Under the pieces are notes generated by a model. That model saw only the letters and a program-made list of their open reading frames with translations, made no database searches and had not been told where the DNA came from. A DNA stretch of 64,000 nt from a virus: IMG/VR virus record IMGVR_UViG_3300045988_114464, positions 32,001 through 96,000 of that record, one strand, 5' to 3'. Below, piece after piece: positions 5,808 to 58,460 of the stretch (position 1 is its first letter; each line of letters opens with the position of its first letter). Both the position numbers and the translations under genes were made by a program.

Positions 5808-7007
5808 ATGGAACGACAGGAAACGCAGTCTTATCTTGCTTTCGTTGAAGAAGCAACTAAGGCTCTGCAAAATGATGAAATTTCTTACACTGAATGGTGT
5901 AAAGCGATTGTTGGTGAAAAGATTTATTCTGACGAAACCCTAAGACGATGCGCTGTGCTGTTTGGTGAATTTTTAGAGCGACTTGACGCAGATGAGATTA
6001 AAACTCTAAATGACGAAGATAGAGTTAATCGTCTTATTGAAGCAAAAGAAGAATTAGTTAAGGAACGGAAGAAAATTCAAAGCGCTAATCTTGAACACCA
6101 AGAATATTATCGCAAGGTTGCTCGACACGAACTTCTTGACGAAATGATTGTAGACGCGATTAAGCGCCTTGAGCCAGTTAAGATTAAACACGAACATTTT
6201 ACCAAGCCTTCTAAAAGTACAGGCGTTCTTGTGCTTGCTGATGAACACTTTGATTCAACGTTTGTACTCAAAGGGTTAAATGGTGAGATTATCAACGCTT
6301 ACGACAAGGAAATTTTCAAAGAACGTATGTGGCGATTGCTTTCTATGATTGAAAGCGATAACTTTGATTATGACGAACTGCTGATTGTTAGTTGTGGGGA
6401 TGCAATCGAAAATGTCCTCCGCATGGGTAGTTTGCAAAAGTTGCGTTCTAATGTTGTAGATGCAGTTATTGAATTTTCTGAGTTTATGTCACAATGGCTT
6501 ATTGTTGTTCAAGAAAAGTTGAAAGTTCCAGTGAAATTTGCTATTATTTCTGGCAATCACGATGTTAATAGAATTTTAACTCAGCCAGCCGTATTCCCAG
6601 AAGAAACGTTTGCTAAGATTATTCATAAGTTTATTGAAATGCGTCTTGAAGGGTGTAAACCAGATATTACAGTAGAACCGTATGGCGATGTATACTTTAC
6701 TTGTTTATATGGTAATAATCTACTGTTTGCTCATGGCGAAACAAATAATCTTATTGAATTGGCAAATTATTATGAGAATTTCTATGATATTCAGATTGAT
6801 TGCTTGTATGCTGGTCATCTTCATAGAAGCGAAACTAAGCCAGCGGGTGTTGGTTATATGGGCGACCGCGAAGTGATTCGTGTACCGTCTACTGTAGGCA
6901 CTGACCCTTATGCCAAGAGTATTCAAAAGCATAGTCGTGCTGGCGTTTACTTTGCCGTGTATAATGAAAACGGCAGAGATTTAAGCAAAATTTATTATTT
7001 GAATTAA
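5808..7007 (+). CDS. calcineurin-like metallophosphoesterase (Mre11/SbcD-like fold)
   Basis: The ordered motifs LADEHFD, CGDAIEN, SGNHDVN, FAHGE and AGHLHR are typical of metallophosphatases. Confidence 0.7.
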   Translation: MERQETQSYLAFVEEATKALQNDEISYTEWCKAIVGEKIYSDETLRRCAVLFGEFLERLDADEIKTLNDEDRVNRLIEAKEELVKERKKIQSANLEHQEYYRKVARHELLDEMIVDAIKRLEPVKIKHEHFTKPSKSTGVLVLADEHFDSTFVLKGLNGEIINAYDKEIFKERMWRLLSMIESDNFDYDELLIVSCGDAIENVLRMGSLQKLRSNVVDAVIEFSEFMSQWLIVVQEKLKVPVKFAIISGNHDVNRILTQPAVFPEETFAKIIHKFIEMRLEGCKPDITVEPYGDVYFTCLYGNNLLFAHGETNNLIELANYYENFYDIQIDCLYAGHLHRSETKPAGVGYMGDREVIRVPSTVGTDPYAKSIQKHSRAGVYFAVYNENGRDLSKIYYLN

Positions 7008-12125: not shown

Positions 12126-12308
12126 ATGTGCAGAATCGGTGAGCCTTCAGATTTATCATTATATAAATATACTGATGACCCAAATATTATTCTAAGAGTA
12201 CACCAAGCAGGATTCCCCCCAGAGTGGAAAGATTTTTCTGGTGTTGTATATTGGCGTATTACTAATAAGTTGATTAAGGCGTTAAAGAAACACAATATCG
12301 ACCTTTAA
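12126..12308 (+). CDS. hypothetical protein (60 aa)
   Basis: A small co-oriented ORF that fills the gap. Confidence 0.4.
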   Translation: MCRIGEPSDLSLYKYTDDPNIILRVHQAGFPPEWKDFSGVVYWRITNKLIKALKKHNIDL

Positions 12309-20372: not shown

Positions 20373-21195
20373 TTTACAATACCTCAAAGAAGTATATTTT
20401 GCTTACGATGAACCAGTCCCCTATAAATGTAAGGGGGGTAACACTATTAACATTATTCCTGTTGATGTAAAACATGGGCTTGTTTTTCAATCCAGTGTTG
20501 ATATTATAGCATTTGACAAAAATAGTGTCAATGATGCAAAGGTAATTTCTATGAGTTATCTTGAGTTTATTATTGGTATGATGGCTGAAGCGCCAGTTTT
20601 TGTCCAAAAGTTTGTCAATATTTTGAAACTTTGTTTAGGGTTAGAGCATCCTGCGATAACTTTTAATGAACAAACTAACAAGCCGTTAATAGTGGATGAA
20701 GAAGCAGGAATAAAAATTACTCACAAAGATTTTGAAGATATTCGGAGAATTATTCTCTACCAGAATATTCCAAAATATGATGATGAGTATATTAACCCAG
20801 ACTTGAAAAAAGCAATGGAAGAAACTGATAGGCTGAGAAACAAAGATATTGATATGCCGACTTTTGAGCGAAAGTGTGCAATTATTACGGCTCATTGTGG
20901 CTTATCCAAGAAAGAACAGCTTGAGATGACGTTACGTTCTCATATTATGCTTTTTGACGAAGTTTGCGGCGAAATTGAATTTACAACGGTTCGTCCCGTG
21001 GCACTTTTTGGTGGCAAGGGTAATGAACTTGAACATTGGATTTTCCATAAAAAGAAGGGTAAATTCGATGGATACATTACAGAGAAAGACCAGCTTGTTA
21101 AGCAGATGGGTGGTGAAGGTAGCTTCACTAATGCGTCTACTGATACAAGTCGTGGTGATTCTCTGGAACAATTATTTAATCAAGGAGGAAATTAA
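20332..21195 (+). CDS. hypothetical virion protein (start uncertain)
   Basis: A long ORF that overlaps the previous gene by 41 nt. An internal start near 20353 is possible. Confidence 0.45.
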   Translation: MWAILVRMLLVAIDLQYLKEVYFAYDEPVPYKCKGGNTINIIPVDVKHGLVFQSSVDIIAFDKNSVNDAKVISMSYLEFIIGMMAEAPVFVQKFVNILKLCLGLEHPAITFNEQTNKPLIVDEEAGIKITHKDFEDIRRIILYQNIPKYDDEYINPDLKKAMEETDRLRNKDIDMPTFERKCAIITAHCGLSKKEQLEMTLRSHIMLFDEVCGEIEFTTVRPVALFGGKGNELEHWIFHKKKGKFDGYITEKDQLVKQMGGEGSFTNASTDTSRGDSLEQLFNQGGN

Positions 21196-23664: not shown

Positions 23665-23961
23665 ATGTGTGAATATACTAATGGTAATTTGTGCAAAGTT
23701 ACCAATTCTGTTTGTCCTTATATGATGTACTGCGAAAAAATTCAAGGATATAAGCCGTCAAGATATATGCCTGACGATTGTCCACAAAAGATAAAAGCCC
23801 AAATTCCTGCTGGCTATCGCAGAGTTATTCAAGAACGAAAAGGCAAACTTTATATTGAAATTGGAGAACAAGCAGTTATTGTTCCAAATCCTTTTGACCA
23901 CGTTCCACTTTATGTCAAAGCGACAAAATTAAAGAATGGAACATGGCGATTAAAGGAATGA
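23665..23961 (+). CDS. hypothetical Cys-rich protein (98 aa)
   Basis: ORF after AGGAGG with the N-terminal cysteine cluster CEYTNGNLCKVTNSVCPYMMYC. Confidence 0.5.
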   Translation: MCEYTNGNLCKVTNSVCPYMMYCEKIQGYKPSRYMPDDCPQKIKAQIPAGYRRVIQERKGKLYIEIGEQAVIVPNPFDHVPLYVKATKLKNGTWRLKE

Positions 23962-26968: not shown

Positions 26969-29900
26969 GAAATGGTAGAAGGTGCGACTGAGTTCCGCAA
27001 AAACTCTTTCAATGATGAAGATTCTGCGAACTTAGCGCAAGTTTCAGCTATGTTTCAAAACGTAGCGGATGAATCACTATCTGCTGGTGATTCTGCTTCG
27101 TTTATTATCGCACAAATGAAAGCGTTTGGCATTGAAGCTGACAATGCCATCCATATCGTAGACGCGGTGAACGCCGTTTCTAACAATTTTGCGGTTTCAT
27201 CTGGCGACCTCGCTACGAACCTTGGTAATATGTCTGCCGCACTTGCAGTAGGTAATAATACATTTGAGCAGTCTTTGGCAATGCTTACGGGTATTACCGA
27301 AGTTACTCGTAATGCGTCTAAGGGTAGCCGTGCGTTGGTGTCCGTGCAGAGCCGTCTTAACCAAGTCGTTGATGAAAGTTCAAGCACAGGTCAAAAATTA
27401 ACTAATTGGTATAATGACCATAATATTGCGATTTATGACCAAGAAGGCGAATTAAGAAGTCTGTATGAAATCTTAGGTGACGTTTCTAAACAGTGGGACG
27501 GACTATCTAAGAATGAGCAGTCTTATTTTCTAAACATACAAGCGGGTGCAAATCAGTCTCAGAACCTTGCTTCACTTCTCTCAAACTGGGATTCTGTAGT
27601 AAAGGCTCAAGATGTAGCACTTAATTCCGCAGGTTCAGCCGCAAAGGAAAATACGGCATATATGGACAGCCTTGAGTCCAAGGTTGCGGCTCTAAAGGCT
27701 TCTTTCCAAGAACTTGCTAACGCTGTAATTACCAAAGAAATGGTATCAGAAGTGTTGAATTTGGTCAACGCTTTTACTAAACTTGCTGATACTGGTGTAG
27801 GTAGAGCAATTATTAAATTTGCGCTATTCTCTACTACCATGAGAGCGGCTTCTGCTATTTTTGGCAATACGGCAAGAGTATTGCTTCAGATGTTCACAGG
27901 CATGAGCACTGGACAAAGAACCATTACTGAGTTGATGAATGCTGGCGGTAGAATTGGTTCGATATTCACCAATTTGATGGGTATTTTTAACGATGTTCGT
28001 ATGTCTGCTTCTGGTATGGCTGGACCGATGACAGCTTCTTCCAGTGCGTTGTCAGGAATGGCTTCATCTGCACTTTCGGCTCTTACTTCGCTAAATCCAC
28101 TTGCGATTGGCATAGGTGCTGTTGTTGCCGCTGGCGCTGGGCTTGCAATAGCTATTAAACATTATGCTAATGAAGAAAAGAATCTTCAGAAGTCAGTAGA
28201 CGAACATAAAAATTCTGTTAGTGATATTCAAAGTCAAATTGACGAATACAATTCGACCCTTGAATCTAACAAACAACGTCTTGAAGAAATCAATTCCTTA
28301 AAGGGTACTTCAAAGTGGAATGGCGAACTTGAAAATGAAGCAAACACGCTTGAACGCCAAAATACTCTTATCGAAAGACAGATTACTCTACAAGAGCAAA
28401 AGCTAAAGGCAGAGCAAGCCGCACTTTGGCAAGAACAATCTAAGTTGTTTGATAAGCAGTATGGCGATAAAATGCGCTATACTACAAAGCAACAAAATCT
28501 TCGTGGTGAAGAAGTATCTGTTACTCTTACTGGCGAAAAAGCCTATAAACAAAAATTAACAGATTTACAAACAACTATCCATAAGTTTACACAAACACAA
28601 AATCTTGATTATAAAGAAGCCGCTACTGAAGCTGAAAGTTCGATTCTATCAATTATTTCTGAACTTGAAGAATATAAAGAAGCGGCTGTATCTGCTGGCG
28701 ATACTACTAAAGCTGATTACATTCAATCTTTAATTGATTTGGCTGAAGCCAGTGATTCTGTAAGCGGTGGTACTATTGGTGATGCACTTGACGGCGATTC
28801 AAAAGCAATGGAGAACGCCGCCGATAAAGCAGAACAATTACACGACCGTATAGTAAATCTTGCACAAGATTTGGGAACAACTGTTGCTCAACTTGGCATT
28901 AAAGCTAAAGACGCTTTTTCTACAGAAGAATGGTTGGAAAAACTTGACCCATCTTCTTTGAACAATCTTGAGCAAATACTAAATCTGATAGGCGACCGTG
29001 CGGGTTGGCTTGGCTCACAGCTTAGCAATATGTCAACAGAAGAAACCGTCACTTATCTATCAGAAGTTATGCGCCGATTTACTGGTGCTGTGCAAGACGC
29101 TACTGGCGCTTATGATGAATTTGACAAGGCTTTAGAAACAGATTTTGCAAAGCCTTTGCAACAAATGAATGAAATGGCTGACTACATTGAGCAGTCAGAT
29201 AAACATGGCATTCAGAATATGCAAGCGTATAACAAGGCTTTGGAAGGCGTATACGGTACAACTGATAAGAATATTATTGCGCTTCAAGACCAGAAAGCCG
29301 CTATGTCGGATTTCCGTACAACTACGGTTGAAACGGCTACTGCTCTTGATAATATGAAAGCCTACTATGATTCAGCGGGTAATTTCTTAGGCGATAAACT
29401 TCTTAAAAATATTGAGCAAATTTCCAAAAACAAGGACAAGTTTGGCGACCTTGTTAATTTTGAGAAATTTGATGACGGCACTTTCAAAGTAGCTGTTAAG
29501 GATTTTGGCGACCTTGCGGACGCTCTTGGTATAACTCAGCCAATGTTGAGCAGTTTTATGGAAGCCCTTGGTGGTTCTGTAGACTTCCAAATGGGGGACA
29601 CCTTAAATGCCGCTCAAGCCGCTATTCAAGATATTCATGACGCTGTTTCTAATACAGATGCAGGTGGTATTTCAGACCTACTAAATAAACTTGGTAGTGC
29701 TGACCCCACGAATATTAAGAATAGAGTGCAAGATTTACAAGCGCTTAATGATAAACTTAATGACCTTTCATCCTATACAAATGTACCTTTTGATTTTGAC
29801 TTTAGTAAATTAGAAGGTCAAGATTTTACTGATGCCGCAAAGCAAGTTGAAGGTTACGCAAATGCACTTAAAACCTTTACTACGGATTCTGGTTCTTGGG

Positions 29901-32900
29901 ATTTAAGTGGTACTATTGACAAGGTTAATAGTGCGCTTAAAGACGCAAGTAAAGGTACTAAAATCGAACTTGATGGTAATAACATTAAGTTTGAGTCGGA
30001 AGATGCAGTCAATGAACTAAAGAGCCAAATCGAAGATGCCTTTGATGGTATGGACTTTGAAGATATTGTCAAAACTGATGCGGGCAAGAGCATACTTGCT
30101 AATCTTTTTGACGGTATGGAAATTGACGCTGACCAAGCGGGCGATGTAGGTAAAGATTTCGCTGACGCAGTAACCGAAGCTATTCAAGACCAATTAAACA
30201 CCACTCAAATCGCACTTAACGGTATTGGTGCTGAAGTCAAGGGCGAGTTAGGTTATCAAGTTGACGAAGGCATGAACGCTGTTCAAGAATCTGGTCAACG
30301 AACTGCTGATTGGTTCTCTAATAGCTTTGCGCCACAAGTACAGCAAGGTGTTCAGAGCGCTATGTCTGGTGCAGAACAATCCGCACAAAATAGCGTAAGT
30401 GTTCTACAAGGCATATTCTCTAACATGAATATTGCTGACCCAATGCAACAAGTTCAGCAAGGTATTCAAAACGTCAACGGCGAAGTTAATAACTTTAGTG
30501 CTGGTAACATGACAAGTCAGCTTGGTGAAGTTGGCACTGCCGCAGGGCAAGCAGGAGATAAATCTGAAGAAGCTAAAACTAAGGCTCAACAACTGAGTCA
30601 AGTTTCTATGTCGAACTTTATCACTGGTATGGTGAATGGCGCAAGTTCGGCTTCTGCGCTATCTTCTATTGCTTCTACTGCTTATAACAATGCTTCTAAG
30701 TTAAATACTACCTTTACTACCGTATTTAAGGCTGATACTTCTCAGTGGAAAGTTCCTTCTCTTCCTACGGGAGTAAAGAAGGCTGTGGGTCAAATTCCAG
30801 CTTATGCCAACGGTAAAATGGATGACCTTTCTGGCACTCAACCAATGCGTTCTCAATCCTCTAAGATTGCGCTCGTTGGTGAGGAAGGCGCAGAGTTCCG
30901 TATTACTGCTGATGGCAGAAAAGAACTTCTTGGTAAGAATGGTGCAGAATTTGTCAAGGTAAATAAGGGTGATACCATTATTCCTGCGAATGTTACTGAT
31001 ATGATTCGCAAGGGACAACTTCAAGGGTATGAAGCGGGCAAATTTGGTGGTAGAACTTCTGTTTCTGGTTCTGGTGTAAGCAATGGCAATCATACTATTC
31101 ATGTTGGCAAAACCGAAAGTCGATATGTTGGTGCGACCAGTAGTAGCACTAAGGCTACTCATGCTAATACTAAGGCGACTAATGCCAATACTTCTGCTAA
31201 GTCTGCTAACGCTTCTGCAAGTTCCAAAGCCGCTGAAGCAACAGACGAACTAACAGACGCACAGAAAAAGCAGAAAGAAGCCTTTGAAGAAGCTAACGAT
31301 GTAACCGAACACCATATTTTCTTGCGTGAAAAACAAGGCGCTTCTTACGCTGAACTCATTAAGATGAGTAAGGCTTATCAGAAGCAACTTAATAAGCAAG
31401 CAAATTGGTGGAGAAGCCAAGGGTTTAACGATGATTCTGAAGAAATCCGCAAAATCCAAAAGGATTGGTGGGGACTTCAAGATGACATAACTTCCTATCA
31501 AGAAAAGGCTTTTGACGAACGCTATCAGAAATCCAAAGATTACATTGATGACCGTAATGACCTTGAAGATTGGGGTGCTGACTCCGAAATTGAAGCATGG
31601 CATCGTGTTGAAAAGTGGATGGATGAATGGTATGCTCGTGGCGAGATTAGCTACAAGTATTACCTTGAAAAGCGTAAAGAAGCCACAAAAAAAGCCGCCG
31701 AAGCTGAAAAGAAGGCTTGGGAAGAAGCTAAAAAGTCTCAGATTAAAGAACTTGAAGATTGGCAAGACGTTTACGAAGATTTGTTTGACCTTGTAGCTGA
31801 CAAGGCTCAAGAAGAAATCGACAAACTGAACGAACAACGCGATACCGTTGAAAAATATTGGGACGATAAAATTGACGCGCTTGAAAAGGCGAACGATGAA
31901 CTTGACGACCAGATTGAAAAGGAAGAAGCACTTGACGCTTTGGCTCGTGCTCGTTCCACTAAAGTCATGGTTTATCAGAATGGTCGATTCCAATATATCA
32001 ACGATATGGACGAAGTTTCTGAAGCTAAGACTAACCTTGAAAAGATTGAGCGCGAACAAGCACTCAAGAAAGAAAAGGAAAATCTTGAAAAGCAGAAAGA
32101 AGCGGCTCTAAAGGCTATTGACGACCAGATTGACGCATGGGAAAAATACAAAGACGAGTGGGGCAAGGTTGTTTCTGATTACGAAAAGAAGCAGAAGGAA
32201 CTTAATGTTCTACAGAAACTTGGTATTGACCTTGAAGCAGATAACTGGAAAGAGCGCCTTGGTAATCTACAAGATTACGTTAATAAGTATGCCGAAATTA
32301 TGGGGCAACTTACCAAACTTAAAAAAGAAGAAGAATTGGGTAAAGACCTGCCTTCCTATGACTCTAACAAGGGTACTGCTGGCGCGGGTGCTGGTGCAAT
32401 TATTGGTACTGGTGCAGGTATTGCCGCTGGTGGTGCTATTGGTGGCGCTGTCGGTGGTGCTATTGGCACGGTCATTGGCGCTGTAACCGGTGGTCTTGGG
32501 CTTAATAAAGGTAGTTCTTCTTCTGGTGGTTCAAGTTCTTCTGGAAAAACTTACCAATCTGTTGGTGGTAAAGCACCTTCTGGCTTAAAAGCTGGTGACA
32601 AGGTAGTTACTAATGGTGGTACTTACACTATCACTGGTGTTAATAAGGACGGTTCTTATACTTCTCAGAAAACTTCTAACACTACAAAGTCCAATTATAA
32701 AGGCACTTATTCAAAGAAGGCTTCTGGCACTAAATATAATGCGGCAGGTATTTCGCTCGTTGGCGAAGAAGGCGCAGAATTGCGCGTACTTGGTCAAGGT
32801 GAAGGTATTGTTCCTCATGATATGACAGCTAACCTGTTTGAATGGGGACAAACCAGACCGAGCGATATTGTATCTGCTATCACAGGCGCACAAACTGAAA

Positions 32901-33334: not shown

Positions 33335-34435
33335 ATGGCAATGGCTTTACCAAGACCAGTGTTAAATACACAGGTTGCGTTTGACGCTACACAGGCTCAT
33401 ACCTTTACGTTTACTGTATATGGGTCTGGTGCTCAAGTTACAGCAAACAAGCTAACCATTAGAAAACAGACTGATAATTCGATTGTTTATCAACAGCAAC
33501 AAACTACATTTAAGTTTGAACATACGTTACCTGCTGGTTCTCTAACCAATGGTAACTATTATAATGCAACTATTATCGTGATTGATGGCAACGGAGTAGA
33601 ATCAGCAGAATCTATTCCTATTCAATTTTGGTGCTATTCTGCTCCAAGTATTGTAATGACGAATTTTCCTGTTACTGCAATTATTGATAATGCTTCATTC
33701 AACTTTGAGTTTAGTTATAATCAAGCTGAAGGAGAAAGATTAAATAGCTATGTAGTTAATTTGTATGATAGTACAAAGACGTTAATTTCCACTTCTGGTA
33801 CAGTGTATGTAGAAGATGGTATACCGCCATATGATGGTGGTTATTTGTTTAACGGCTTTGAGAATACAACCGAATACTTTATTGAAATTGTTGGTCTAAC
33901 AATCAATGGAACTACAGTAACGACAGGACAAGTACGGTTTAATACACGATATATTAACCCAAGTATTTATTCACAGATAGAACTTGAAAACCATTGCAAA
34001 GATGGTTATATTACTGTTACTTCTAATATGATTTTGATTGAGGGTGTAAGTCAGCCCGACCCACCGACATATATAAATAATAAAGAAGTGGATTTACGCC
34101 AAAATAACAGTTATGTTGAATGGAATCAAGGTTACAATATTTCCAGCGATTTTACGACAAAATTATGGTTTAGGGGCGCAAATCCAAATTCAACTTTAAT
34201 TCGCTTTAGCAATACTAATGGTCAAACGGTTGCAGTAGATTATCGAGAAGGATATAAAGACCAAACCGCTCAAGATAAGCAAGCGTATATGGAAGTATAT
34301 GTTGAATCTATCAGTGGAATGAAGTATTATATCTTTAGTGATTATCTTGATATTCTGCCAGACAGTTCATATTATTGTTTTTGGCTAAGACGAATTAACA
34401 ATATTTATCAAACACATTTTGCGATTGTAGAATAA
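33335..34435 (+). CDS. tail structural protein (distal tail/baseplate region)
   Basis: The call is by position after the TMP. The ORF is long and beta-rich. Confidence 0.45.
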   Translation: MAMALPRPVLNTQVAFDATQAHTFTFTVYGSGAQVTANKLTIRKQTDNSIVYQQQQTTFKFEHTLPAGSLTNGNYYNATIIVIDGNGVESAESIPIQFWCYSAPSIVMTNFPVTAIIDNASFNFEFSYNQAEGERLNSYVVNLYDSTKTLISTSGTVYVEDGIPPYDGGYLFNGFENTTEYFIEIVGLTINGTTVTTGQVRFNTRYINPSIYSQIELENHCKDGYITVTSNMILIEGVSQPDPPTYINNKEVDLRQNNSYVEWNQGYNISSDFTTKLWFRGANPNSTLIRFSNTNGQTVAVDYREGYKDQTAQDKQAYMEVYVESISGMKYYIFSDYLDILPDSSYYCFWLRRINNIYQTHFAIVE

Positions 34436-34450
34436 GAAAGGGGTGGATTT

Positions 34451-35359
34451 ATGTTTCAGTTTATAGGACTAAGTGCGTTTGCAGGTCAAGATTGCTTAAA
34501 TCCAACTCCTGCACAAGTTAATGATATTAAGACAACAAGAGTAACAAATGCTATTTTTGACCAATTCAGTGTAACGAAGAATGTATCTGAACCATTTAAT
34601 GTTTCACTTCCCACTATTTGGGACTATGATACTATTATGGACGCTACATTTGACGGCAACATTGAAGCTGGCAATGTAGAGTTTGCTTTGAATCAGATTA
34701 CTGAAGTCAAAATTAAGCGCCGTGTCCGTGGCACGTTTGATTGGCTGACGCTAAAATCTGTTCCTATTCACTCTGTATCTGACCTATCTTTTGCTTTTGA
34801 AGATAGAACAAATACGCATGGTGTAGAATATGAATATGCTTTTGTTCCAGTGTTAAATAATGCTGAAGGTGACTATATCATTAACAGTATTATGTCCGAC
34901 CTTGAAGGTGTATTTATTGGTGACGCTGATACTTGCTACCGATTCTTGTATGATGTGCAATATGGGACGAATGCACGCAAAGTAAATGTTGGTACATTCC
35001 AACCATTAGGTAGAAAATATCCTATCGTTATTTCTAATGGTTTGTTAAGTTATGATACAGGTTCTATTTCTGGTATTGTTCTTGACGATGAATTTGAAAA
35101 CACTGGTATTATAGATAGCGCAAAAACCAATGAAAAGAAGCGTAAACTCAAAGATTTTCTTGCTGATAAAAAACCAAAGATTTTACGCGATTGGACTGGC
35201 GCTAAGTGGTTGGTAGCTATTACCGATGATATTCAGATTTCTTATGCTGAATCTTCTGGTTTGCGCGTACCTTCTATGACTATTACATGGACGGAGATTG
35301 GTAATGCTGATGACCAAAATGATTTGTACTACAATGGTATTATTGACGCGCCATCATAA
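34451..35359 (+). CDS. tail/baseplate structural protein
   Basis: By position only. Confidence 0.45.
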   Translation: MFQFIGLSAFAGQDCLNPTPAQVNDIKTTRVTNAIFDQFSVTKNVSEPFNVSLPTIWDYDTIMDATFDGNIEAGNVEFALNQITEVKIKRRVRGTFDWLTLKSVPIHSVSDLSFAFEDRTNTHGVEYEYAFVPVLNNAEGDYIINSIMSDLEGVFIGDADTCYRFLYDVQYGTNARKVNVGTFQPLGRKYPIVISNGLLSYDTGSISGIVLDDEFENTGIIDSAKTNEKKRKLKDFLADKKPKILRDWTGAKWLVAITDDIQISYAESSGLRVPSMTITWTEIGNADDQNDLYYNGIIDAPS

Positions 35360-49812: not shown

Positions 49813-50775
49813 TCACATTGATTTGCGGTCTTTGAACTCTGCGAGTTTGTGGTCTGCATACATGGTTCTGCCTTTGATTTTAGAATATCCTAAATATCCG
49901 TTCATTCTCTCAATACGAGTGATGTTTTTACTGCCACATTTAGGACATTCATCTTTATCAATGAAAGAAGCGCCACAATCTTCACAATAATCAAGCTGTA
50001 GATTTACACCTTCATAGAAGCCCATATCCATTGCTCTACGAATGAGAGTTTTCATTGCTTCAATATTGTAGTCTGTAGTATAACGACAATATTGAATATT
50101 ACCACCATTACATAGATGGAACATTGGATATTCAATATCTTGCTTTTGAATAGGCGAAATATCTTCCCATACACCACAATGAAACGAATTAGAAGTGTAA
50201 GGACGGTCAGATACGCCCTTAATAATGCCGTATTTCTTGCGGAACTGCTCGACCTGCAAACCGCAAAGGGATTCAGCAGGAGTTCCGTAGAGAGCATATA
50301 GAATGTTGTCGATTTTCTTATATTTCTCAGCATAATCATTGATAAACTTCAAAACTTCAATGGCAAAAGTATTATCTTCGGCAATGGTTTTACCGTTATA
50401 CAGTACACTGGTTTCATTGAGTGCAGTAATACCAAAACTCATTGTCATAGGACGAAGGAAATCTTCGCCAATTTCTTCTTCTGGGTCAAAGTGACCATTA
50501 AGAAAACCGCCTTGACAGAAAGCAAGTGGGTTAGTACCAGCTTTCTTGTGAGAAAGATAAGTAAATGTGCGCTTGTGAATAGCGCGGCACATATCAAGAT
50601 AATAAGTTAGTACGTCATAAAAATCCTTGTTTTCTTGCTTTGCTTTAGCAAGAATCATAGGAAAGTGAAGGGAGATTGCTCCGAGGTTACAACGCCCTTC
50701 ATATACAGGCTTGTCTTGGTCATCTGCGGGGTACATACCGCCACGCTCATACCAAGGTGAAAGATTTGCTCGACA
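49813..50775 (-). CDS. anaerobic ribonucleotide reductase NrdD, exon 2
   Basis: It starts CRANLSPW..EGRCNLGAISL and ends with the zinc site CEDCG..CPKCG and the glycyl-radical loop RMNGYLGY. The track's Met is a TTG that belongs to the intron. Confidence 0.85.
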   Translation of the reverse strand, partial: CRANLSPWYERGGMYPADDQDKPVYEGRCNLGAISLHFPMILAKAKQENKDFYDVLTYYLDMCRAIHKRTFTYLSHKKAGTNPLAFCQGGFLNGHFDPEEEIGEDFLRPMTMSFGITALNETSVLYNGKTIAEDNTFAIEVLKFINDYAEKYKKIDNILYALYGTPAESLCGLQVEQFRKKYGIIKGVSDRPYTSNSFHCGVWEDISPIQKQDIEYPMFHLCNGGNIQYCRYTTDYNIEAMKTLIRRAMDMGFYEGVNLQLDYCEDCGASFIDKDECPKCGSKNITRIERMNGYLGYSKIKGRTMYADHKLAEFKDRKSM

Positions 50776-51596
50776 CAAGGGAATTATATCCCTTAGACTA
50801 TATCATAATTGTTTGGTCAATTCTTCGCGCTTCCATAGCAAGAATTGCACTTGCTATGTACTCTACTTGGTTACTTTCTGATACAACCCAAATTACATAT
50901 CAGATACCCTTTCGATAGTCGTTTAACATACATATTCAAATTTGTAATTATCGAAGTAATTAGGACTTAATTCGCCTTTTAGCACTCGCGCAATTTTGTG
51001 CCTATCCATATGTAAACATCTACCAGCTTCACGAATAGAAGTGAAATTTTGCACATTGCCTTCTTTGTCAATAGCGCGAATAGCCGTGTTGTTTTTGTGT
51101 GTTCTATTGCCACTATCCCAACCATGTTGTACATTATAAGCATTAGTACACCATTCAAGATTTTCAAGACGATTGTCTGTTTTATCAGAATTGATATGAT
51201 TAACGTACTTATAATTGTTAGGATTTGGGATGAAACAATGTGCTAAGATAACATGAACTCGTTCATGTACAAAACTGTGGTCAGGTAAACTACGCATTAC
51301 TTGCATATATCCATCACTGCCTTTATGTGGGGTGACTTGATTACCTGTGCGAGAGTTATAAAAGTTAAAATTTTCATCTACCAAAAATCCGTTGTATTCT
51401 TTATATTGCATTTTATCACCTTCTTTCGTATAAAATCATTTGAATATGCTTAGCACAGCGATTATTTCATACTTTTGTATGAACCTTCCCTGTTAGCAGA
51501 GATATTAACAAACCATTTCCTGTTTGAACTTACGTTATCTCCACACCATATATTTATATGTTCACGAAGTTTTACATGGGCTATCGTGTCATTTCA
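50776..51596 (-). mobile_element. group I intron in nrdD
   Basis: P1 pairs exon AUGGGU with intron GCCCAU (51581-51576), giving a U-G wobble at the splice site. It has the R-like element AAACGACTATCG, the S-like element GATATAGTCTAAGG and a terminal G at 50776. Removing it joins ..ISRMG|CRANLS.., the conserved NrdD motif, in frame. Confidence 0.85.
50923..51411 (-). CDS. intron-encoded HNH homing endonuclease
   Basis: VHVILAHCFIPNP..VNHINSDKTDNRLENLEWCTNAYNVQH, with its own RBS (GAAGGTGA). Confidence 0.8.
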   Translation of the reverse strand: MQYKEYNGFLVDENFNFYNSRTGNQVTPHKGSDGYMQVMRSLPDHSFVHERVHVILAHCFIPNPNNYKYVNHINSDKTDNRLENLEWCTNAYNVQHGWDSGNRTHKNNTAIRAIDKEGNVQNFTSIREAGRCLHMDRHKIARVLKGELSPNYFDNYKFEYVC

Positions 51597-52784
51597 ACCC
51601 ATTCGACTAATAGTTACACCATACTTTTTATAAATTTCTGGTGCATAGCCATCACCTGTACACGAGATAAAATCGGGGTACATACATTTGCTACTGCAAT
51701 CAATCGCTTCATCAAACAGCCATTCCAGTTCTTTGCCTTCGCCGTGAAGTTCTTTATCATAAAGGAAACTTAGTTTAGGAAATAGCACAGGATGTTTGAA
51801 ACCTTTCTTACCTTGTCCTTCCTTGCGTACCCTTAGGCAAACAGAAGATAGCATAGATTCCATACGGTTAGTACCCAGTCCAAAAGAAACAGCGGTAAAC
51901 GGATAATCGCCACGACTTGAAGCCACAGAATTAAACTTCATTTCCCATGCTTGGAAACCTTGCTCTGCTTCACGAGTAACTTTATTAAAAGCATAGGTAT
52001 CTGCCGCTTGTTCAAATGCCTGACTGCTTGTATTACCTTGCCAATTATCTACGATTGCGAAATAATCTTGGTAATATTTCTCATAACTCTTTTGAGCATA
52101 AGGAGCAAGTAGCTTATCAATCTCGCTGATTGTATAGCCACCATACTGAGCCGCCGCCATATTCATTGCAACATCAGCTACAAGGTCGAAAGCTACATCA
52201 AGGCTATGCGGTTCTTCATAATCGAGATTACCCATAGTAAAACCACCAGTAAGAATTGACTTCATATCAGCAAGGCAACAGTTTACACTATCAAGTCTTG
52301 AGCCACGGTCGTGAATATAGATATAGCCTTCAGACATTGCTTGTTCTTCTTCGATAGTAAGGAAGAATTTCTTGTAAAGTTCACTGTTTAATTCATTGTA
52401 CACAATAGCCTTTTGTGTGGTTACAAGAGCACTATCGGCATTAGCATTGCTTCTATCTCCGATAAAAGATAGAGACAGCTTCTTGCTATATACCTTATCC
52501 AACATTGAAGCAAAGGCGCTCTTATTGTCACGATATTCACGATAAGATTTTGCTACCGCTGAATTAACCGAATCAAGAGCAACTTCCACCATATTGTGAA
52601 TAGTATTGACAGGAACAGGAGTTTCATTATACTGTAGCTTGCCACGAACGGTTGATACAACCTTATCTTCGTCATTCTTAGATAAAGGCATACATACACG
52701 TTCCGCACTTTTTTGGATAGCTTTGCGAATCTTGTTTCCGTCAAAATTTACGATAGCCCCATTCTTTTTAAGGACTTTAATCAT
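51597..52784 (-). CDS. anaerobic ribonucleotide reductase NrdD, exon 1
   Basis: It has an N-terminal ATP-cone (MIKVLKKNGAIVNFDGNKIRKAI) and class III RNR body motifs, ending ..GVTISRMG. Confidence 0.85.
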
Positions 52785-53434: not shown

Positions 53435-53923
53435 TCACTTCACGCTAATGCTCTTGTTCTCCACCAGCTTAACACCATGTAGCGGAGTACCACTCTGTAC
53501 CATCTTCTTGAGGTCGGTCTTGCTATACTTGTAGGTTTCAATCTTAGTGCATAGGTCTTTGTGGAACTTGAGAAATTCTTCTTCATTGATCTCGGTGCTT
53601 GTAGACTTACGGAAAGAAATCTTGCAACGTGCAGTTTCAAACTTGCTACCTTGCAGGTCATCAGACAGCATAACCTTTAGACGATTGATAAGATTTTCCT
53701 TGACCTTTCTACGCTTTGCAAGGTTGACTTCTTCCTTCTTGATAGCGTCACACTCGGCTTCAACAGACTTAATGTAACAAGCGATGTTTTCAATCTTTTC
53801 GTCATGTGCTACTTGAAGCTGGTCAAGTAGCGACATATCGGTAAGGATTTCGCCAGTTTCTTCGTCAATCTCGATGTTGTTCATAAAGTCAAGAATTTGA
53901 GAGTTAATATCATATAGTGTCAT
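53435..53923 (-). CDS. Siphovirus Gp157-like protein
   Basis: The start MTLYDINSQILDFM follows GGAGGAATCAAA. The acidic N-terminus and coiled-coil layout are typical of the Sipho_Gp157 family. Confidence 0.55.
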   Translation of the reverse strand: MTLYDINSQILDFMNNIEIDEETGEILTDMSLLDQLQVAHDEKIENIACYIKSVEAECDAIKKEEVNLAKRRKVKENLINRLKVMLSDDLQGSKFETARCKISFRKSTSTEINEEEFLKFHKDLCTKIETYKYSKTDLKKMVQSGTPLHGVKLVENKSISVK

Positions 53924-54631
53924 TTTGATTCCTCCATTAAATAGTTGTACCATGTTTCAGCCATTGCTTGCGCGATAGATGGGAAAGTTTTACTACGATT
54001 CTTAGCGCGTTCAGCTTGGTTCTTACCGCCTTGAGCGTCACACCAGTTTACTCTTTGTCCATTGTGGAGATAGTATTTAGCGTCCGGCTTATCAAAATCG
54101 TTACGTCTTTCAAGTAAAGGTAGACCCTTTAACCAAAGACAAGTGCGCTTCATGTCATAGCTTTCGTCATCTTTACTCGTGACAAAGTAATAGGGGTGGA
54201 TAATCTGATTTGGCTTACGATAATGCGTGTTCATATAGCCAACAGGGTTTTCAATAGCAATATGCTTACAGTTGGCATGGACAAAGTTCATAAAGAAATC
54301 ATACGCTTCTTCACGTTGCTTAATGCGTTCAGCAACTTTTTCTGGTGAGTTACATCGTAAGCTATAATGTCTTGTCCCTGCCACAGTAAGGTAAGTACAA
54401 GGTGGATGAGCAATGATTAAATCCCACTGTCCTTCCACCTTATGCACTTTGCCGTCCATTGTGGTAAATTCACAGTTACCGTTAAGTAAACTTAACACAT
54501 CACCTTTAATATGCCATTCAGGGTGTCCACCGCTACACTCTTGAATGTCACAGGAGAAGCAACGCCCCCCCCAACTCACGGAAAGCCTTACAAACAGTTT
54601 GGCTTTCTTCACAAGCAATTAGAATATTCAT
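53920..54631 (-). CDS. C5-cytosine DNA methyltransferase, frameshifted at a G8 tract (phase-OFF as sequenced)
   Basis: The body has IIAHPPCTYLTVAG (motif IV) and IAIENPVG (motif VI). The true N-terminus MNILIACEESQTVCKAFRELGG begins at ATG 54631 after AAGGAGA, but G8 puts it in another frame. G7 would fuse the two parts. Confidence 0.75.
54565..54572. repeat. homopolymer C8 (G8 on the coding strand)
   Basis: Counted directly; located at codons 20-23 of the C5-MTase gene. Confidence 0.95.
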
Positions 54632-54645
54632 GGTTATCTCCTTAG

Positions 54646-54903
54646 TTATACTTCTTCGTATGTTTTTTCAAAAATATCAGGTTTACAAGGGTAAAACTCG
54701 CCGTTTACACCCTTGATGATGTAGTCACCAACAGATGCCAGCATAGTTCCCTCAAGAGTTAAAACAAGGAACATTTTCTTGTTCTCACTCCACACGACAT
54801 TCATTCCGCAAAACTTGTCGATTTCCGTCTGGTTCTTGCCTGTCCACTGAACAGCTTCGATAACTACAGGTTTCTTACGATATTTCATAATCATTTTCTT
54901 CAC
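54646..54903 (-). CDS. PGDYG-domain-like small protein
   Basis: KKPVVIEAVQWTG...SVGDYIIKGVNGEFYPCKPDIFEKTYEEV resembles the family pattern as I recall it. Confidence 0.4.
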   Translation of the reverse strand: MKKMIMKYRKKPVVIEAVQWTGKNQTEIDKFCGMNVVWSENKKMFLVLTLEGTMLASVGDYIIKGVNGEFYPCKPDIFEKTYEEV

Positions 54904-55097
54904 TCTCCGAAAATCATAATATATTTAGTCCCGCTCTCAGGGTCATGTTTGCGTAACCAATCCTTAAATTCCTTTTCAGTAGAACAGCGATATAGCATAT
55001 TCTGCATTTCGTTCAAGTTCTGACGAATGATTTCAAGGTCTTTACGAACGCCGTTGATTGAATTGATAATGTCTTGTTGCACTTCTTTGTCAATCAT
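54900..55097 (-). CDS. hypothetical protein
   Basis: A small coupled ORF. Confidence 0.4.
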   Translation of the reverse strand: MIDKEVQQDIINSINGVRKDLEIIRQNLNEMQNMLYRCSTEKEFKDWLRKHDPESGTKYIMIFGE

Positions 55098-55100
55098 TGC

Positions 55101-55328
55101 TTACTCCTTTCTAATGCCAATGCCAGCTTGCATAAGCAAATCATACAAGTCAAGGTCGCTTGAATCGGTGAGATAATCGCCGTTTTTATCATAAAGATTG
55201 TAATTGGTATAAGGTCGAGCCGTAATGCCTGTTAGATGTTGAAGTTTGGTGAGAAACACGGCATCAACGCCATCATATTCAAGATACTCGTTTAATTCAT
55301 TGAACTGTTTTTGAGAGATTGTTCTCAT
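55101..55328 (-). CDS. hypothetical protein
   Basis: A small coupled ORF. Confidence 0.4.
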   Translation of the reverse strand: MRTISQKQFNELNEYLEYDGVDAVFLTKLQHLTGITARPYTNYNLYDKNGDYLTDSSDLDLYDLLMQAGIGIRKE

Positions 55329-55549
55329 TCTACCTCACACCCCATATTCTTTGCCAGTTGTTCTACAGAAGTTTTAATTGTTGCATTCGTCAATTTCATA
55401 CCGTACTGCGGTAAATTTTCAATAATATCATTGATTTCCGCTTTGTACTCAATACCGTTATCTCTTAACGCTTGTAGTAGTTCATCTTTACGAATTAGAC
55501 CACTAATCTCTATTGTGTAAGAATCACAAGTATTTGTTATTCCTTTCAT
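55325..55549 (-). CDS. hypothetical protein
   Basis: A small coupled ORF. Confidence 0.4.
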   Translation of the reverse strand: MKGITNTCDSYTIEISGLIRKDELLQALRDNGIEYKAEINDIIENLPQYGMKLTNATIKTSVEQLAKNMGCEVE

Positions 55550-55806
55550 TCCAATTCCTCCTGCAAGTCCATATTCACTGTTTCAGTACCGCAAGCATTC
55601 GGCTGTACCTTGTACTCAAAGCCATACTGCTTCTCATACCCTTGCAGTACACCTTCGATAGCTTCATAGCCTGTGTCGAACCTATGAACATCATGGTTTG
55701 CCTTGTCGATTAACTGCTCTGGGTCAATTTCATCTTCACATTCAATAATGTGATAGTGCTTGGTTAGTTCAACGATTAGATACTTAGCCATTGGTTTCAC
55801 CTTCAT
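55546..55806 (-). CDS. hypothetical protein
   Basis: A small coupled ORF. Confidence 0.4.
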   Translation of the reverse strand: MKVKPMAKYLIVELTKHYHIIECEDEIDPEQLIDKANHDVHRFDTGYEAIEGVLQGYEKQYGFEYKVQPNACGTETVNMDLQEELE

Positions 55807-55984
55807 TTGAAGAATTTTGTAAGTCGTTAATAAACGTCATAATCTTATTATAGCACTCGTTACATACGCAACTGTACACCTTGTCAACAAAACCTTCGTG
55901 TTTTTCCGTCATGATGTTCCAACTCATGTACATCGTTCTCGCATTCATTTCCTTGCCACATACATCGCAAAATGTTTTAGTCAT
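55784..55984 (-). CDS. hypothetical zinc-ribbon protein
   Basis: CDVCGK...CVCNEC forms two Cys pairs. Confidence 0.4.
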   Translation of the reverse strand: MTKTFCDVCGKEMNARTMYMSWNIMTEKHEGFVDKVYSCVCNECYNKIMTFINDLQNSSNEGETNG

Positions 55985-56055
55985 TATGATTCTCCTTTCA
56001 CTAATTTTTGCTTGTTGATTGTACTATATCCGTCACGGAATATTTATCAATCATC

Positions 56056-56304
56056 TCAAACTAATAAATCTTTTATTTCTTTGCCATCAATAGACTTAAC
56101 AAAATAAAGCATAATATTAGGCGAAGAAGGACTTCCCAGCAAAATTGAAGTCGTCATATTTGTGTTGGTACAATATACTGTGATAACATCATTTTCGATA
56201 GATTTAACATACCCAGTTGTGTTATCTTTGAATAAAATAAGCATATTAGGTTCAATCCAGCCAAATACTTGTTTTAAGTATGTGCTTGAAAATTTCGTTT
56301 TCAT
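56056..56304 (-). CDS. hypothetical protein
   Basis: A co-oriented ORF. Confidence 0.4.
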   Translation of the reverse strand: MKTKFSSTYLKQVFGWIEPNMLILFKDNTTGYVKSIENDVITVYCTNTNMTTSILLGSPSSPNIMLYFVKSIDGKEIKDLLV

Positions 56305-56360
56305 TGAACGCCAACCGCCTTTCTTAGCTTTTTATAATTGCTTATACACCACAAAATGTT

Positions 56361-57133
56361 TTAATCATTATTATATTTTCCTTTCCACCTAAACAGCTTT
56401 TCTGTTTTCTTAGGCTGATTATTCTTGTTATAGTCAAGCGTTCTTCTCAATTCCTTTTCCCAGACAACTTCAAAATCGTCTGGCGCTTCTTGCTCGGAAA
56501 TAAATACAATACATCTCTTAGAAAGTTCACGCATATATTCCCAAAATTCTTCGTGGTTAAAATCACCAGTTGTATAACCAGTAGTTTTAGCATAAGGCGG
56601 GTCACAATATACAACCGCCCCGTTTGGAATATCAACTTCACGATAATCAAGACAAGTAAAATTGGCATTTTGTACACCTTGCAAGTCACGAAGTAAACTG
56701 CGTTCCGCTCGGGCACAATAATTGTCACCTCGTTTATTACTTGCCAACCCACCAAACCATTTACCACCAAACGAACAACCAAAACCGACAAAACCAGTTA
56801 ATGCCTTATTCTCGTCTTTGTGCTCTTTGATGTAATAATATTCTTCTTTAGTGATAATAGAAGGTGGTGTCCAGCCAGACTGTAAACCTTTCCACATTTC
56901 AATCAAATATGGATGCTTATCATTAAGAATTTTGGTTTCTGCTTTTACTTTCGCTTCAACAGCACAAGAGCCACAGAACAGACTTACGAATGTCTGCCCC
57001 CCCCAAGTTCAAGGTGTGGTTGATAACTTGTGCAATCTGAGTTGAGATACGAGATTTTCCGCCCATGTATTGCATTGTTAATTACCTCCGAAATTTGTTT
57101 AGAAATACGAGATTTACCGCCTAAGTAACGCAT
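56361..57133 (-). CDS. Dam-like (D12 class) N6-adenine DNA methyltransferase, frameshifted at a G8 tract, with a duplicated 5' end
   Basis: The body has FVSLFCGSCAVE (motif I) and VVYCDPPY (motif IV). Two N-termini, MRYLGGKSRISKQI (ATG 57133) and MQYMGGKSRISTQI (ATG 57075), lie in the two other frames. G7/G10 fuse ATG2 to the body and G6/G9 fuse ATG1. Confidence 0.75.
56997..57004. repeat. homopolymer C8 (G8 on the coding strand)
   Basis: Counted directly; located at codons 24-27 from ATG2 of the Dam-like gene. Confidence 0.95.
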
Positions 57134-57164
57134 ATAATCATCCTTTCATGTTGATGATTATATC

Positions 57165-57266
57165 TTATCTCATTTTAGTTGCTTTGTCAATACGTTCTTT
57201 GGCGATTTCAAAATAATTTTCATCAAGTTCCATACCGATGAAATTGCGGTTTGTATTGACAATTAT
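57165..57266 (-). pseudogene. 3' remnant of an N4/N6 (PF01555-like) DNA methyltransferase gene
   Basis: ..NTNRNFIGMELDENYFEIAKERIDKATKMR* is the typical C-terminal motif of this MTase family. The frame opens only 33 codons before the stop. Confidence 0.55.
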
Positions 57267-57892
57267 TCAAAATTAAACTTATATACTCTTTTAACCCAAC
57301 TTAAAAAATCTTCTTTTGACATTGTACTTTTGGCTGTGTTACAATATTTGCAACAAGGAACTGTATTTGTGACAGTATAGCCTATGTTACTATCAATTCT
57401 GTCAATTCCATTGCATTTTACAACAGTATCAGAAAATAAACCGTCTGCTTTTGTTTCGTTTCTTCTATCATATAAAACTTTAGAATACTCTAACCCACAA
57501 TAATAACATGGCGATTTTGATTTTTTGATAAAATCTTCTATTGGCATAATTGTCCCATTAAATTTTTTGTGCCTTCTCATTAAATGGGAATATTGAACTT
57601 TGAAAATGGCGTATTCTCTATCTTCAAATAACCCAAATTGATTTCCTCTTTTTTTAAGAAACTCGGTTAGTAAGCATCCGCAACTTTTTGATTTTCCACT
57701 TGATAAATTATCGCCAACTACAATTTTTTGCTGACCGCAATCACATTGGCACAACCATGTATGTTTTCCCCTGTGGTCTTTACCCATGTGTTTTATTACT
57801 ACCAATCTTCCATATCTTTCACCCGTTCTGTCTCTAAATGCGCTCAATAATAAACCTGCTTTCTTTTTTATTGAGTTCAAGGCAATCGCCAT
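57263..57892 (-). CDS. HNH-type homing endonuclease (start uncertain)
   Basis: GERYGRLVVIKH..WLCQCDCG..SCGC at the N-terminus and CNGIDRIDSNIGYT..NTVPCCKYCNTAK at the C-terminus match a common phage HNH family. Confidence 0.65.
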   Translation of the reverse strand: MAIALNSIKKKAGLLLSAFRDRTGERYGRLVVIKHMGKDHRGKHTWLCQCDCGQQKIVVGDNLSSGKSKSCGCLLTEFLKKRGNQFGLFEDREYAIFKVQYSHLMRRHKKFNGTIMPIEDFIKKSKSPCYYCGLEYSKVLYDRRNETKADGLFSDTVVKCNGIDRIDSNIGYTVTNTVPCCKYCNTAKSTMSKEDFLSWVKRVYKFNFE

Positions 57893-57908
57893 TCTTAATA
57901 TCAATCAT
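57834..57908 (-). pseudogene. 5' remnant of the same methyltransferase gene (24 codons)
   Basis: MIDIKNGDCLELNKKE is the typical N-terminus of PF01555-like MTases and has a good RBS (TAGGAG). The frame stops after 24 codons and overlaps the HNH ORF. Confidence 0.5.
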
Positions 57909-57939
57909 TATTATTCTCCTATTTAACTTAAAGTTAATT

Positions 57940-58460
57940 TCACTTCTTCTGAATTTCTTCAAAGACAATCTGCTTTGGTAACATCTTGTGGCACACATAC
58001 GCACTACTGAAAGGTGGGTTAAGGCTTGGCTTTTGGTCTGCGTAGTCCTTGAAGTAAGCAACTCTGCGGTTAAGGTACATGATTTCAAACTCATTGTTCT
58101 TAAATATATCGAACCTTCGCTGAGATTCAAACAAGCCTACAACACCCACCAGCATTGCGAACGGCTTGCCAATTTCAAACAGTCGTTCCAACACTTCTGT
58201 CTTGACGCTATAAGGTGGATTGCTGATAATCATGTCACACTGTGGTATTGGCATTGTGAAAAAGTCCTGACCATTATCAATGTGCGTACAGATTACCTTG
58301 TTGCCCTGTGCTTTAAGCATTTTAACGAAGTGTGATTCTTCTGTATCAAAAGGACACCATACCGTCAGTTGGGGGGGGCATAAGCCAAGATAGGCTTAAC
58401 GGCATAGGGCGGTGTGTAGAAGTTATCGTTGCCAGAGCCAGCTACTTTATCCATTTTCAT
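57940..58460 (-). CDS. small N6-adenine DNA methyltransferase (NPPY), frameshifted at a C8 tract
   Basis: The N-terminus MKMDKVAGSGNDNFYTPPYAVKPILAYAPP (ATG 58460) stops at 58365. The body ..LTVWCPFDTEESHFVKMLKAQGNKV...MIISNPPYS.. is in another frame. C9 or C6 would fuse them. Confidence 0.7.
58371..58378. repeat. homopolymer G8 (C8 on the coding strand)
   Basis: Counted directly; located at codons 28-30 of the NPPY MTase gene. Confidence 0.95.

Follow-up and report, generated by a model that had tools for sequence, protein, structure and literature searches.

G/C homopolymer tracts in three methyltransferase genes of a phage: probable contingency loci with counterparts in related gut viruses

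RESULTS

Three methyltransferase genes carry the only long G/C homopolymers of the window

The sequence analysed here is a stretch of 64,000 nucleotides (nt) of viral DNA, positions 32,001 to 96,000 of the IMG/VR record IMGVR_UViG_3300045988_114464, and is referred to below as the window. Three putative methyltransferase genes, MT1, MT2 and MT3, lie on its minus strand (Table 1), and each contains a tract of eight G or C residues that probably acts as a contingency locus. These are the only G/C homopolymers of 7 nt or more in the window, for which the GC content is 38.2%. The next longest G/C runs are two 6-mers (12215–12220 and 20433–20438), and the longest run of A or T is 7 nt. A first-order Markov model, evaluated analytically, predicts 0.106 G/C runs of at least 8 nt, against the three observed. 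In the window's long open reading frames (ORFs) GGG makes up 6.2% of the glycine codons and CCC 8.0% of the proline codons, while GGGGGG encodes one Gly-Gly pair in 57 and CCCCCC encodes no Pro-Pro pair in 15, so that the tracts consist of the codons that are used least. The C tracts, read as Pro-Pro, have GCC or ATC on one side and CAA or CAG on the other, and the G tracts share a single codon pattern, that listed for MT1.

Table 1. Predicted genes, gene remnants and homopolymeric tracts of the methyltransferase region, in window coordinates
Feature	Positions	Strand	Description
MT1	53920–54631	-	C5-cytosine-methyltransferase-like gene, OFF; phrog_757 family; in frame with G7 (236 aa)
MT1 tract	54565–54572	-	C8 as shown, G8 on coding strand; codons Leu-Gly-Gly (TTG GGG GGG)
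MT2	56361–57133	-	D12-class (Dam-like, DPPY) N6-adenine methyltransferase gene, OFF
MT2 tract	56997–57004	-	C8 as shown, G8 on coding strand; Leu-Gly-Gly, then Gln
MT4 3' remnant	57165–57258	-	about 30 C-terminal codons, …NRNFIGMELDENYFEIAKERIDKATKMR and stop
HNH endonuclease gene	57263–57904	-	in place of MT4 body; probable start ATG 57892 (MAIALN...)
MT4 5' remnant	57873–57908	-	12 codons, MIDIKNGDCLEL; N6_N4 methyltransferase, PF01555
MT3	57940–58460	-	small NPPY amino-methyltransferase gene, 173 aa, OFF; phrog_799, EcoRI_methylase-like family
MT3 tract	58371–58378	-	G8 as shown, C8 on coding strand; Ala-Pro-Pro-Gln when C9
aa, amino acids; OFF, N-terminus and catalytic body in different frames.

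The tract begins at nt 60 of MT1 (ATG 54631) and nt 83 of MT3 (ATG 58460). In MT2 it begins at nt 72 from the ATG at 57075 and at nt 130 from an upstream ATG at 57133. The starts of MT1, MT2 and MT3 are provided with the Shine-Dalgarno sequences AAGGAG, GGAGG and AAGGAGAG, respectively. All three genes are OFF: a frame difference of 1 nt separates the catalytic body from the N-terminus typical of the family. For MT1, the N-terminal ORF (54548–54631) comprises 27 residues and the catalytic body follows in another frame. A full-length ORF is restored by shortening the tract from 8 to 7 nt in MT1 and in MT2 (237 aa) or by lengthening it from 8 to 9 nt in MT3, the start of which is in frame with C9. 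The remainder of the window contains long intact ORFs.

These features had been described in an earlier note made from the sequence alone, which singled out the three runs as the only ones of 8 nt or more ahead of two 6-mers, placed them 60–90 nt inside the genes, and described N-termini with good ribosome-binding sites whose frame differs from that of the catalytic body and which a 1-nt change of tract length would reconnect. The recount returned the same runs, the measured distances (60, 72 and 83 nt) fall within that range, and the frames and their repair are as described in all three genes. The gene types named in the note (C5-like with PPC and ENP motifs, Dam-like with DPPY, and small NPPY) hold at the level of family or fold, as described in the following section.

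The MT2 N-terminal segment is duplicated (57075–57133; MRYLGGKSRISKQISEVINN followed by MQYMGGKSRISTQIAQVIN), which provides two starts in two frames. G7 or G10 brings the catalytic body into frame with the ATG at 57075 (MQYMGGKSRIS...), and G6 or G9 with the ATG at 57133 (MRYLGGKSRIS...), from which the predicted product is about 256 aa long, so that the gene of the window could be restored through the upstream ATG as well, as an ORF of 257 aa, by a change from 8 to 9 or from 8 to 6. Because the second ATG lies in the other frame, two of the three classes of tract length yield a full-length ORF, and G8, which fits neither start, represents the only OFF class. In relatives of the phage with G6, G7, G9 or G10, MT2 genes are called at 234–256 aa, and the extra glycine that G10 places in the loop of one of them (locus L048) is apparently tolerated. 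The 160 nt upstream of the MT2 tract are almost invariant in the relatives while the gene bodies differ by 2–8%, and there is therefore too little variation to judge selection on the long form.

Family and fold assignments of the encoded proteins

MT2 matches the Pfam D12 profile (PF02086) with 73.9 bits against a cut-off of 22, matches T4 Dam structures with an E-value of 2.4e-5, and contains the motif CDPPYA. Its score of 66 against TIGR00571 is below the cut-off of 114.85, which makes it a divergent member of D12. By family profile and DPPY motif, MT2 is assigned to the D12 class of adenine methyltransferases.

MT1 belongs to the PHROGs family phrog_757, annotated 'DNA methyltransferase' (E 8.6e-57). 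No Pfam profile, PF00145 included, and no NCBIfam profile matched the protein, and searches of the PDB with the single sequence or with a profile returned spurious matches only. As these sequence searches of the PDB were uninformative, fold comparison was used. An AlphaFold model of a homologue with 83% identity (predicted local distance difference test score, pLDDT, of 92) gave as its best PDB matches DNMT3A/3B, DNMT1 and M.HaeIII, with an E-value of 6e-5 and a template-modelling score of about 0.5. The family comprises more than 8,000 homologues and 412 GenBank phage records, some sources label its members 'DNA cytosine methyltransferase', and the PPC and ENP motifs are invariant in both family alignments (A1 and A2). 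The C5-type label of MT1 is thus supported by predicted fold and motif, not by profile match.

MT3 matches phrog_799 with an E-value of 3.5e-31 and represents a family whose members measure about 173 aa and which counts 4,301 homologues at 68–78% identity; the family is strongly conserved and its NPPY motif is invariant. Against the EcoRI_methylase profile (PF13651) MT3 of the window scores 21.7, below the cut-off of 26.4, yet the same domain is recorded for many homologues. The MT3 model (pLDDT 86) matches class I methyltransferases of the N6-adenine type, such as HsdM, TrmM and KsgA. We infer from context that its substrate is DNA.

In the models, the residues encoded by the MT1- and MT3-type tracts lie in the loop that follows the first helix and leads to the next strand. 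In MT1 this loop links helix A to strand 2, and in MT3 it is a linker that is variable in sequence across the family. Distant MT1 homologues in IMG/VR (50–58% identity) have LGHEAY at the site and no tract; the tract is therefore specific to a lineage and not forced by the protein sequence.

A separate observation concerns the MT1 homologue of loci L004 and L007, in which codon 11 is an in-frame TAG (about 6031–6033) at the position of an invariant glutamine (EES-stop-RIT versus EESQ in every other homologue). This suggests stop-codon recoding, with TAG read as an amino acid by these phages.

Tract lengths are polymorphic among related loci

The region had no megablast match among 50,697 GenBank phage records, and exact look-ups of one window ORF and of P0361 returned no record. 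Relatives were located by look-ups of small conserved neighbouring proteins. The resulting comparison set consists of 45 non-redundant loci (numbered with the prefix L) totalling 410 kb, from independent gut metagenome assemblies (ENA, Logan and IMG/VR); the related contigs are 50–114 kb long.

Seven families of DNA-modification genes carry tracts in these loci (Table 2). Besides MT1, MT2 and MT3 these are MT4, MT4b, a Mom-like gene and MT5, which are missing or destroyed in the window. Among G/C runs of 7 nt or more in the related loci, 76 of 77 lie inside the seven families. The sole outlier is a G7 run (L030, 5990–5996) near the 3' end of a gene of 184–200 aa with no assigned function. In six of the families the tract is 17–38 codons from the start, and in MT5 it is at about codon 122.

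Table 2. Numbers of alleles with each tract length (coding strand) in the related loci
Family	Lengths observed	Loci with ON allele
MT1	G7 (ON) 5; G8 (OFF) 9	L030, L036, L045, L046, L058
MT2	G6 1; G7 3; G8 6; G9 1; G10 1	
MT3	C7 1; C8 15; C9 (ON, 173 aa) 5	L015, L016, L038, L042, L052
MT4 (N6_N4, PF01555)	C7 5; C8 (ON) 6; C9 6	
MT4b (N6_N4, tract within DPPY codons)	C6 2; C7 (ON) 2; C8 1	
Mom-like (PF25680)	G6 2; G7 (ON) 1; G8 3	
MT5 (318 aa)	G7 (ON) 2; G8 1	

Both ON and OFF states occur in every one of the seven families, and they are combined differently from genome to genome. In L038, for example, MT3 and MT2 are ON while MT1, MT4b and the Mom-like gene are OFF; in L046, MT1 and the Mom-like gene are ON and MT3 is OFF. 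Nearest-neighbour alleles share their tract length in 5 of 11, 3 of 10, 8 of 14, 2 of 13 and 0 of 6 cases, which corresponds to random expectation. The loci L032 and L037 are 99.26% identical over 9,555 nt, with 70 mismatches, and the single gap in their alignment is the MT4 tract. Tract changes outpace substitutions, and tract length is unrelated to similarity of the gene body.

Two short contigs, L011 (tract at 24–29) and L012 (tract at 26–33), start 23–25 nt upstream of a tract. These ends give a weak hint of an assembly-graph break at a tract that is polymorphic within the sample, the distances being inexact for k=31.

The genes are maintained in both ON and OFF states

Homopolymers are prone to error on some sequencing platforms, and each of the three window genes is off by exactly 1 nt. 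A sequencing or assembly error behind which the true genome is in frame would account for this, as the earlier note had allowed. The same OFF lengths were, however, obtained in many independent short-read assemblies made with different pipelines. The independent ENA assembly ERZ28663390, of sample SAMEA3664508, agrees with the window at 100% identity across 10.2 kb, and its three tracts likewise measure 8, 8 and 8 nt. There are no frameshifts at the far commoner A/T runs, and long intact ORFs are found elsewhere in the window. Error also leaves unexplained why the G/C runs are confined to modification genes, and we consider it scarcely credible as an explanation.

Decay of plain pseudogenes at mutational hot spots was the other alternative named in the note. 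It would fit the window taken by itself, where MT1, MT2 and MT3 are all out of frame and MT4 has been destroyed by an HNH gene. Against it, no internal stops or second frameshifts were found in 45 alleles, every OFF allele regains full length by a change of one nucleotide in the tract, and ON alleles are present in close relatives. The ratio of nonsynonymous to synonymous substitution rates (dN/dS) is 0.05–0.065 for MT1, 0.042 for MT2 and 0.015 for MT3, with synonymous divergence (dS) of 0.26–0.42, and it is the same for OFF–OFF, OFF–ON and ON–ON pairs. Low dN/dS and the absence of second lesions indicate that the genes are kept by selection. The recurrent lengths and the low dN/dS thus counter both of the alternatives in the note, and decay is in our view extremely improbable. 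On the evidence of these alleles, the OFF state appears to be short-lived on the timescale of sequence divergence.

In four loci the MT4 tract is interrupted by substitutions that would lock its length (L024, L025, L031 and L039; cccctccc, ccctcccc and cccttctc), and all four are in the ON frame. The interrupted MT3 tract of L039 is in the ON frame too.

A fourth methyltransferase gene has been replaced by an HNH gene

Between MT2 and MT3 the window retains the two ends of an MT4 gene, with an HNH endonuclease gene in place of its body (Table 1). In relatives, MT4 has a second ATG that is used with C9 and could give an alternative product, and the HNH gene appears to reuse this alternative-frame ATG as its own start. 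The junction of MT4 and HNH sequence lies about 12 nt upstream of the expected tract position; in the relatives, the C7–C9 tract follows a few codons further on. The statement of the earlier note that the tract-bearing arrangement occurs 'three times over' is correct for the window as it stands, and understates the case in that a remnant of a fourth tract-bearing methyltransferase gene is present and relatives have up to five such genes.

The proximity of this junction to the tract site would fit another explanation, namely that the tracts serve some other function at the level of DNA, for instance as recombination or homing hot spots for cassette exchange, and that frame switching is a side effect. 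The region is indeed highly mosaic, with methyltransferase cassettes present in some genomes and absent from others, and the 5' region of MT2 is unusually conserved. The tracts are, however, intragenic, at loop positions and not at cassette boundaries, and most boundaries have no tract. The frames, the alternative ATGs and the locked ON alleles fit control of translation. We regard a role of this kind as very unlikely.

The phage genome and its neighbourhood

The phage genome is about 113.7 kb long and includes portal, tail, tape-measure and homing-endonuclease genes. Its portal protein shares 45% identity with the portals of virulent siphoviruses that infect Enterocloster bolteae, PMBT24 and the CB457P/CB473P series among them (PMC11035940). 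From this likeness the host is probably a member of the Lachnospiraceae, a weak inference. The phage itself is probably virulent.

Gene content of the methyltransferase region is strongly variable between genomes. In L026, L031, L034 and L044–L047, cassettes lie amid likely anti-restriction genes (Lar-like restriction-alleviation, Sequestin PF21825 and Mom-like). Elsewhere in the window, nrdD, encoding an anaerobic ribonucleotide reductase (49813–52784, minus strand), is present as two separate ORFs, of 396 and 321 aa, with an ORF of 162 aa resembling HNH/I-HmuI between them. Relatives have nrdD intact, at 716–724 aa, or in other split forms, and the split looks like the insertion of a mobile intron or a homing endonuclease.

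Similar tracts occur in other phages

A pattern scan of IMG/VR identified 37 viral contigs (L078–L115; GC 38–51%, 16–141 kb) with C7–C10 at the linker of an MT3-family gene. The tract is C8 and OFF in 28 of these and C9 and ON in six, and the loci often have 5–9 more G/C runs. The excess of length 8 in this set is strong.

A second lineage of gut phages (about 130 kb, GC 41–43%; L068–L077, L090 and L094) has seven G/C tracts within 3.2 kb, distributed over PAPS-reductase-like genes, C5 methyltransferase genes and one gene of the MT3 family. Between samples most of these tracts range from 6 to 9 nt; the MT3-family tract is C7 in 10 of 10, a value fixed by the look-up query. One further tract in this lineage coincides with a Walker A motif, that of a kinase/HD-domain protein.

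The cultured Enterocloster phage PMBT24 (L050, OQ326496.2) also has a member of the MT1 family, annotated as the 175-aa 'methyltransferase Dmt' (34314–34841), the reading frame of which is shifted near codon 155, at a G7 tract. An unannotated ORF of about 190 aa that resembles a fibre protein (MAVLNRFPTGGG / IPDDLNTTPAEVLEGYKFIG) has a G9 tract (28317–28325) 12 codons from its start, and a paralogue of this ORF has a G6 tract (23705–23710). The words 'frameshift' and 'homopolymer' are absent from the genome paper of PMBT24 (PMC11035940).

DISCUSSION

The tracts as contingency loci

We interpret the three tracts as hypermutable homopolymeric contingency loci, with a probability of roughly 80%. 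Three of the features that define such loci are present: an over-long intragenic repeat, polymorphism of its length among relatives, and toggling of the frame with an intact ORF. The slipped-strand reading offered in the earlier note is thus supported by the related loci, in which lengths of 6 to 10 nt, ON and OFF alleles and intact gene bodies are all found.

The mechanism that we propose is as follows. Slipped-strand mispairing during replication of the phage DNA would add or remove a G:C pair in a tract. A change of one nucleotide, 20–29 codons into the gene, shifts the catalytic body in or out of frame, as can be read directly from the sequence. Each methyltransferase would in this way be switched ON and OFF heritably and reversibly, and MT2 would have three states because its second ATG sits in another frame. 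A phage population would then be a mixture of genotypes that differ in their active modification enzymes and in the methylation of their virions. By analogy with agt of phage T2, described below, the likely benefit is bet-hedging: methylated virions would survive in hosts whose restriction-modification systems cut unmethylated sites, and unmethylated virions would avoid modification-dependent (Type IV) restriction or other costs of methylation.

Several observations weigh against this interpretation. OFF alleles are in the majority in consensus assemblies (9 of 14 for MT1, 16 of 21 for MT3, and 28 of 37 at the MT3-family site in IMG/VR), and 8 nt is the commonest length irrespective of which one is ON. 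A share of about two-thirds OFF fits random drift among the three frames, and it also fits expression of the 8-nt alleles by slippage. As to the enzymes, MT1 is without a match to Pfam or NCBIfam profiles, and RNA is in principle a possible substrate of MT3.

Transcription is known to slip at homopolymers. It is conceivable that the frameshifted genes are still expressed, through slippage of RNA polymerase or ribosomal frameshifting on G8 or C8, and that the tract is an attenuator and no heritable switch. Such a function would suit the prevalence of length 8 in most families, and OFF alleles are under purifying selection as strong as that on ON alleles. On the other hand, lengths from 6 to 10 nt are seen directly at the DNA level, and the interrupted MT4 tracts are always in the ON frame, which would not be needed if slippage gave expression. 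The 8-nt alleles would moreover require corrections in opposite directions, -1 for MT1 and +1 for MT3, and efficient transcriptional slippage occurs mostly at A/T runs. For these reasons expression by slippage is unlikely to replace heritable switching as the explanation, although the two could run alongside each other.

Comparison with known systems

Phase-variable methyltransferases are classic in bacteria. The phage genes compare with phasevarions, which depend on phase-variable mod genes of Type III restriction-modification systems and are known from Haemophilus, Neisseria, Helicobacter and Moraxella, and with the polyG-controlled Type IIG gene cj0031 of Campylobacter. As in mod and cj0031, the repeat is in the 5' part of the methyltransferase ORF, its length switches translation and differs between close relatives, and independent switches act in combination. 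Unlike mod and hsd, the genes described here encode orphan D12, C5-like and 173-aa NPPY enzymes, and their carrier is a phage that is probably virulent. Neither res nor hsd genes stand beside the methyltransferases in the window or in the gene tables of the related loci, and the Mod/HsdM/S arrangement by which phasevarions are recognized was not seen there. In contrast to phasevarions, it would be the phage's own genome that is methylated, with evasion of restriction as the likely effect, and control of a bacterial regulon is not indicated.

In phage T2, an A-run in agt is a contingency locus that trades restriction by TgvAB against restriction by McrBC (Gomez, Barrick and Waters, bioRxiv 10.1101/2025.10.21.683753). 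The phage genes resemble agt in that a homopolymer in a DNA-modification gene undergoes reversible frameshifts; the restriction trade-off was shown in T2 and is proposed here. The T2 repeat consists of A residues in a genome that is AT-rich, wild-type T2 is ON, and putative repeats occur there across all classes of genes, whereas the tracts described here are G/C 8-mers of the rarest codons and are almost confined to modification genes. Their number also differs, as genomes of this clade have up to five and 3.2 kb of the second lineage contain seven, and the polymorphism is that of natural populations, compared with experiments in T2.

In the account of Sorensen et al. (2021, Cell Rep 35:109214), polyG tracts of 7–11 nt in Campylobacter Fletchervirus give rise to phenotypically mixed progeny; those tracts are described in receptor-binding genes and affect adsorption, unlike the DNA-modification genes considered here. 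PMBT24 may have both kinds of tract, in a modification gene and in a fibre-like gene. For Bordetella phage BPP-1, a later preprint cites Liu et al. (2004) for a polyG tract in a methylase gene. This likeness covers a single gene and no population data, and according to the citing preprint it was not taken further. In a 2026 review of methyltransferase epigenetics, the enzymes encoded by phages figure solely as constitutive ones. A full-text literature search gave no account of sets of methyltransferases gated by G/C tracts in phages; subscription journals were mostly outside its coverage, and a prior report is possible.

Implications

Phage methyltransferases are usually viewed as fixed anti-restriction equipment. 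If they are switches, one 'genome' is a population, with up to eight methylation states in the phage of the window and at least 32 in relatives with five switches. Host range, evasion of restriction and the matching of phages to hosts by methylation motifs would then need to be read again, and binning of phages with hosts by methylation could be misled. Annotators will miscall tract-bearing genes as fragments, as has happened with PMBT24, and phages used in therapy or as models may shift their host range through tract slippage. The length polymorphism would also provide evidence from natural populations for the use of contingency loci by phages, recently claimed from laboratory work, and PMBT24 on Enterocloster bolteae would be a culturable system for that claim.

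More broadly, we lean slightly towards the view that large virulent phages of gut Firmicutes routinely carry sets of G/C-gated modification genes, an 'epigenetic phasome' of adenine and cytosine methyltransferases and of Mom-like and PAPS-reductase-like proteins. If this is true, each burst would contain virions with numerous different sets of DNA marks, a permanent hedge against whatever restriction systems the strains encountered possess. This would amount to a widespread and so far undescribed form of counter-defence, and the state of the tracts in metagenomes would predict the state of the methylome.

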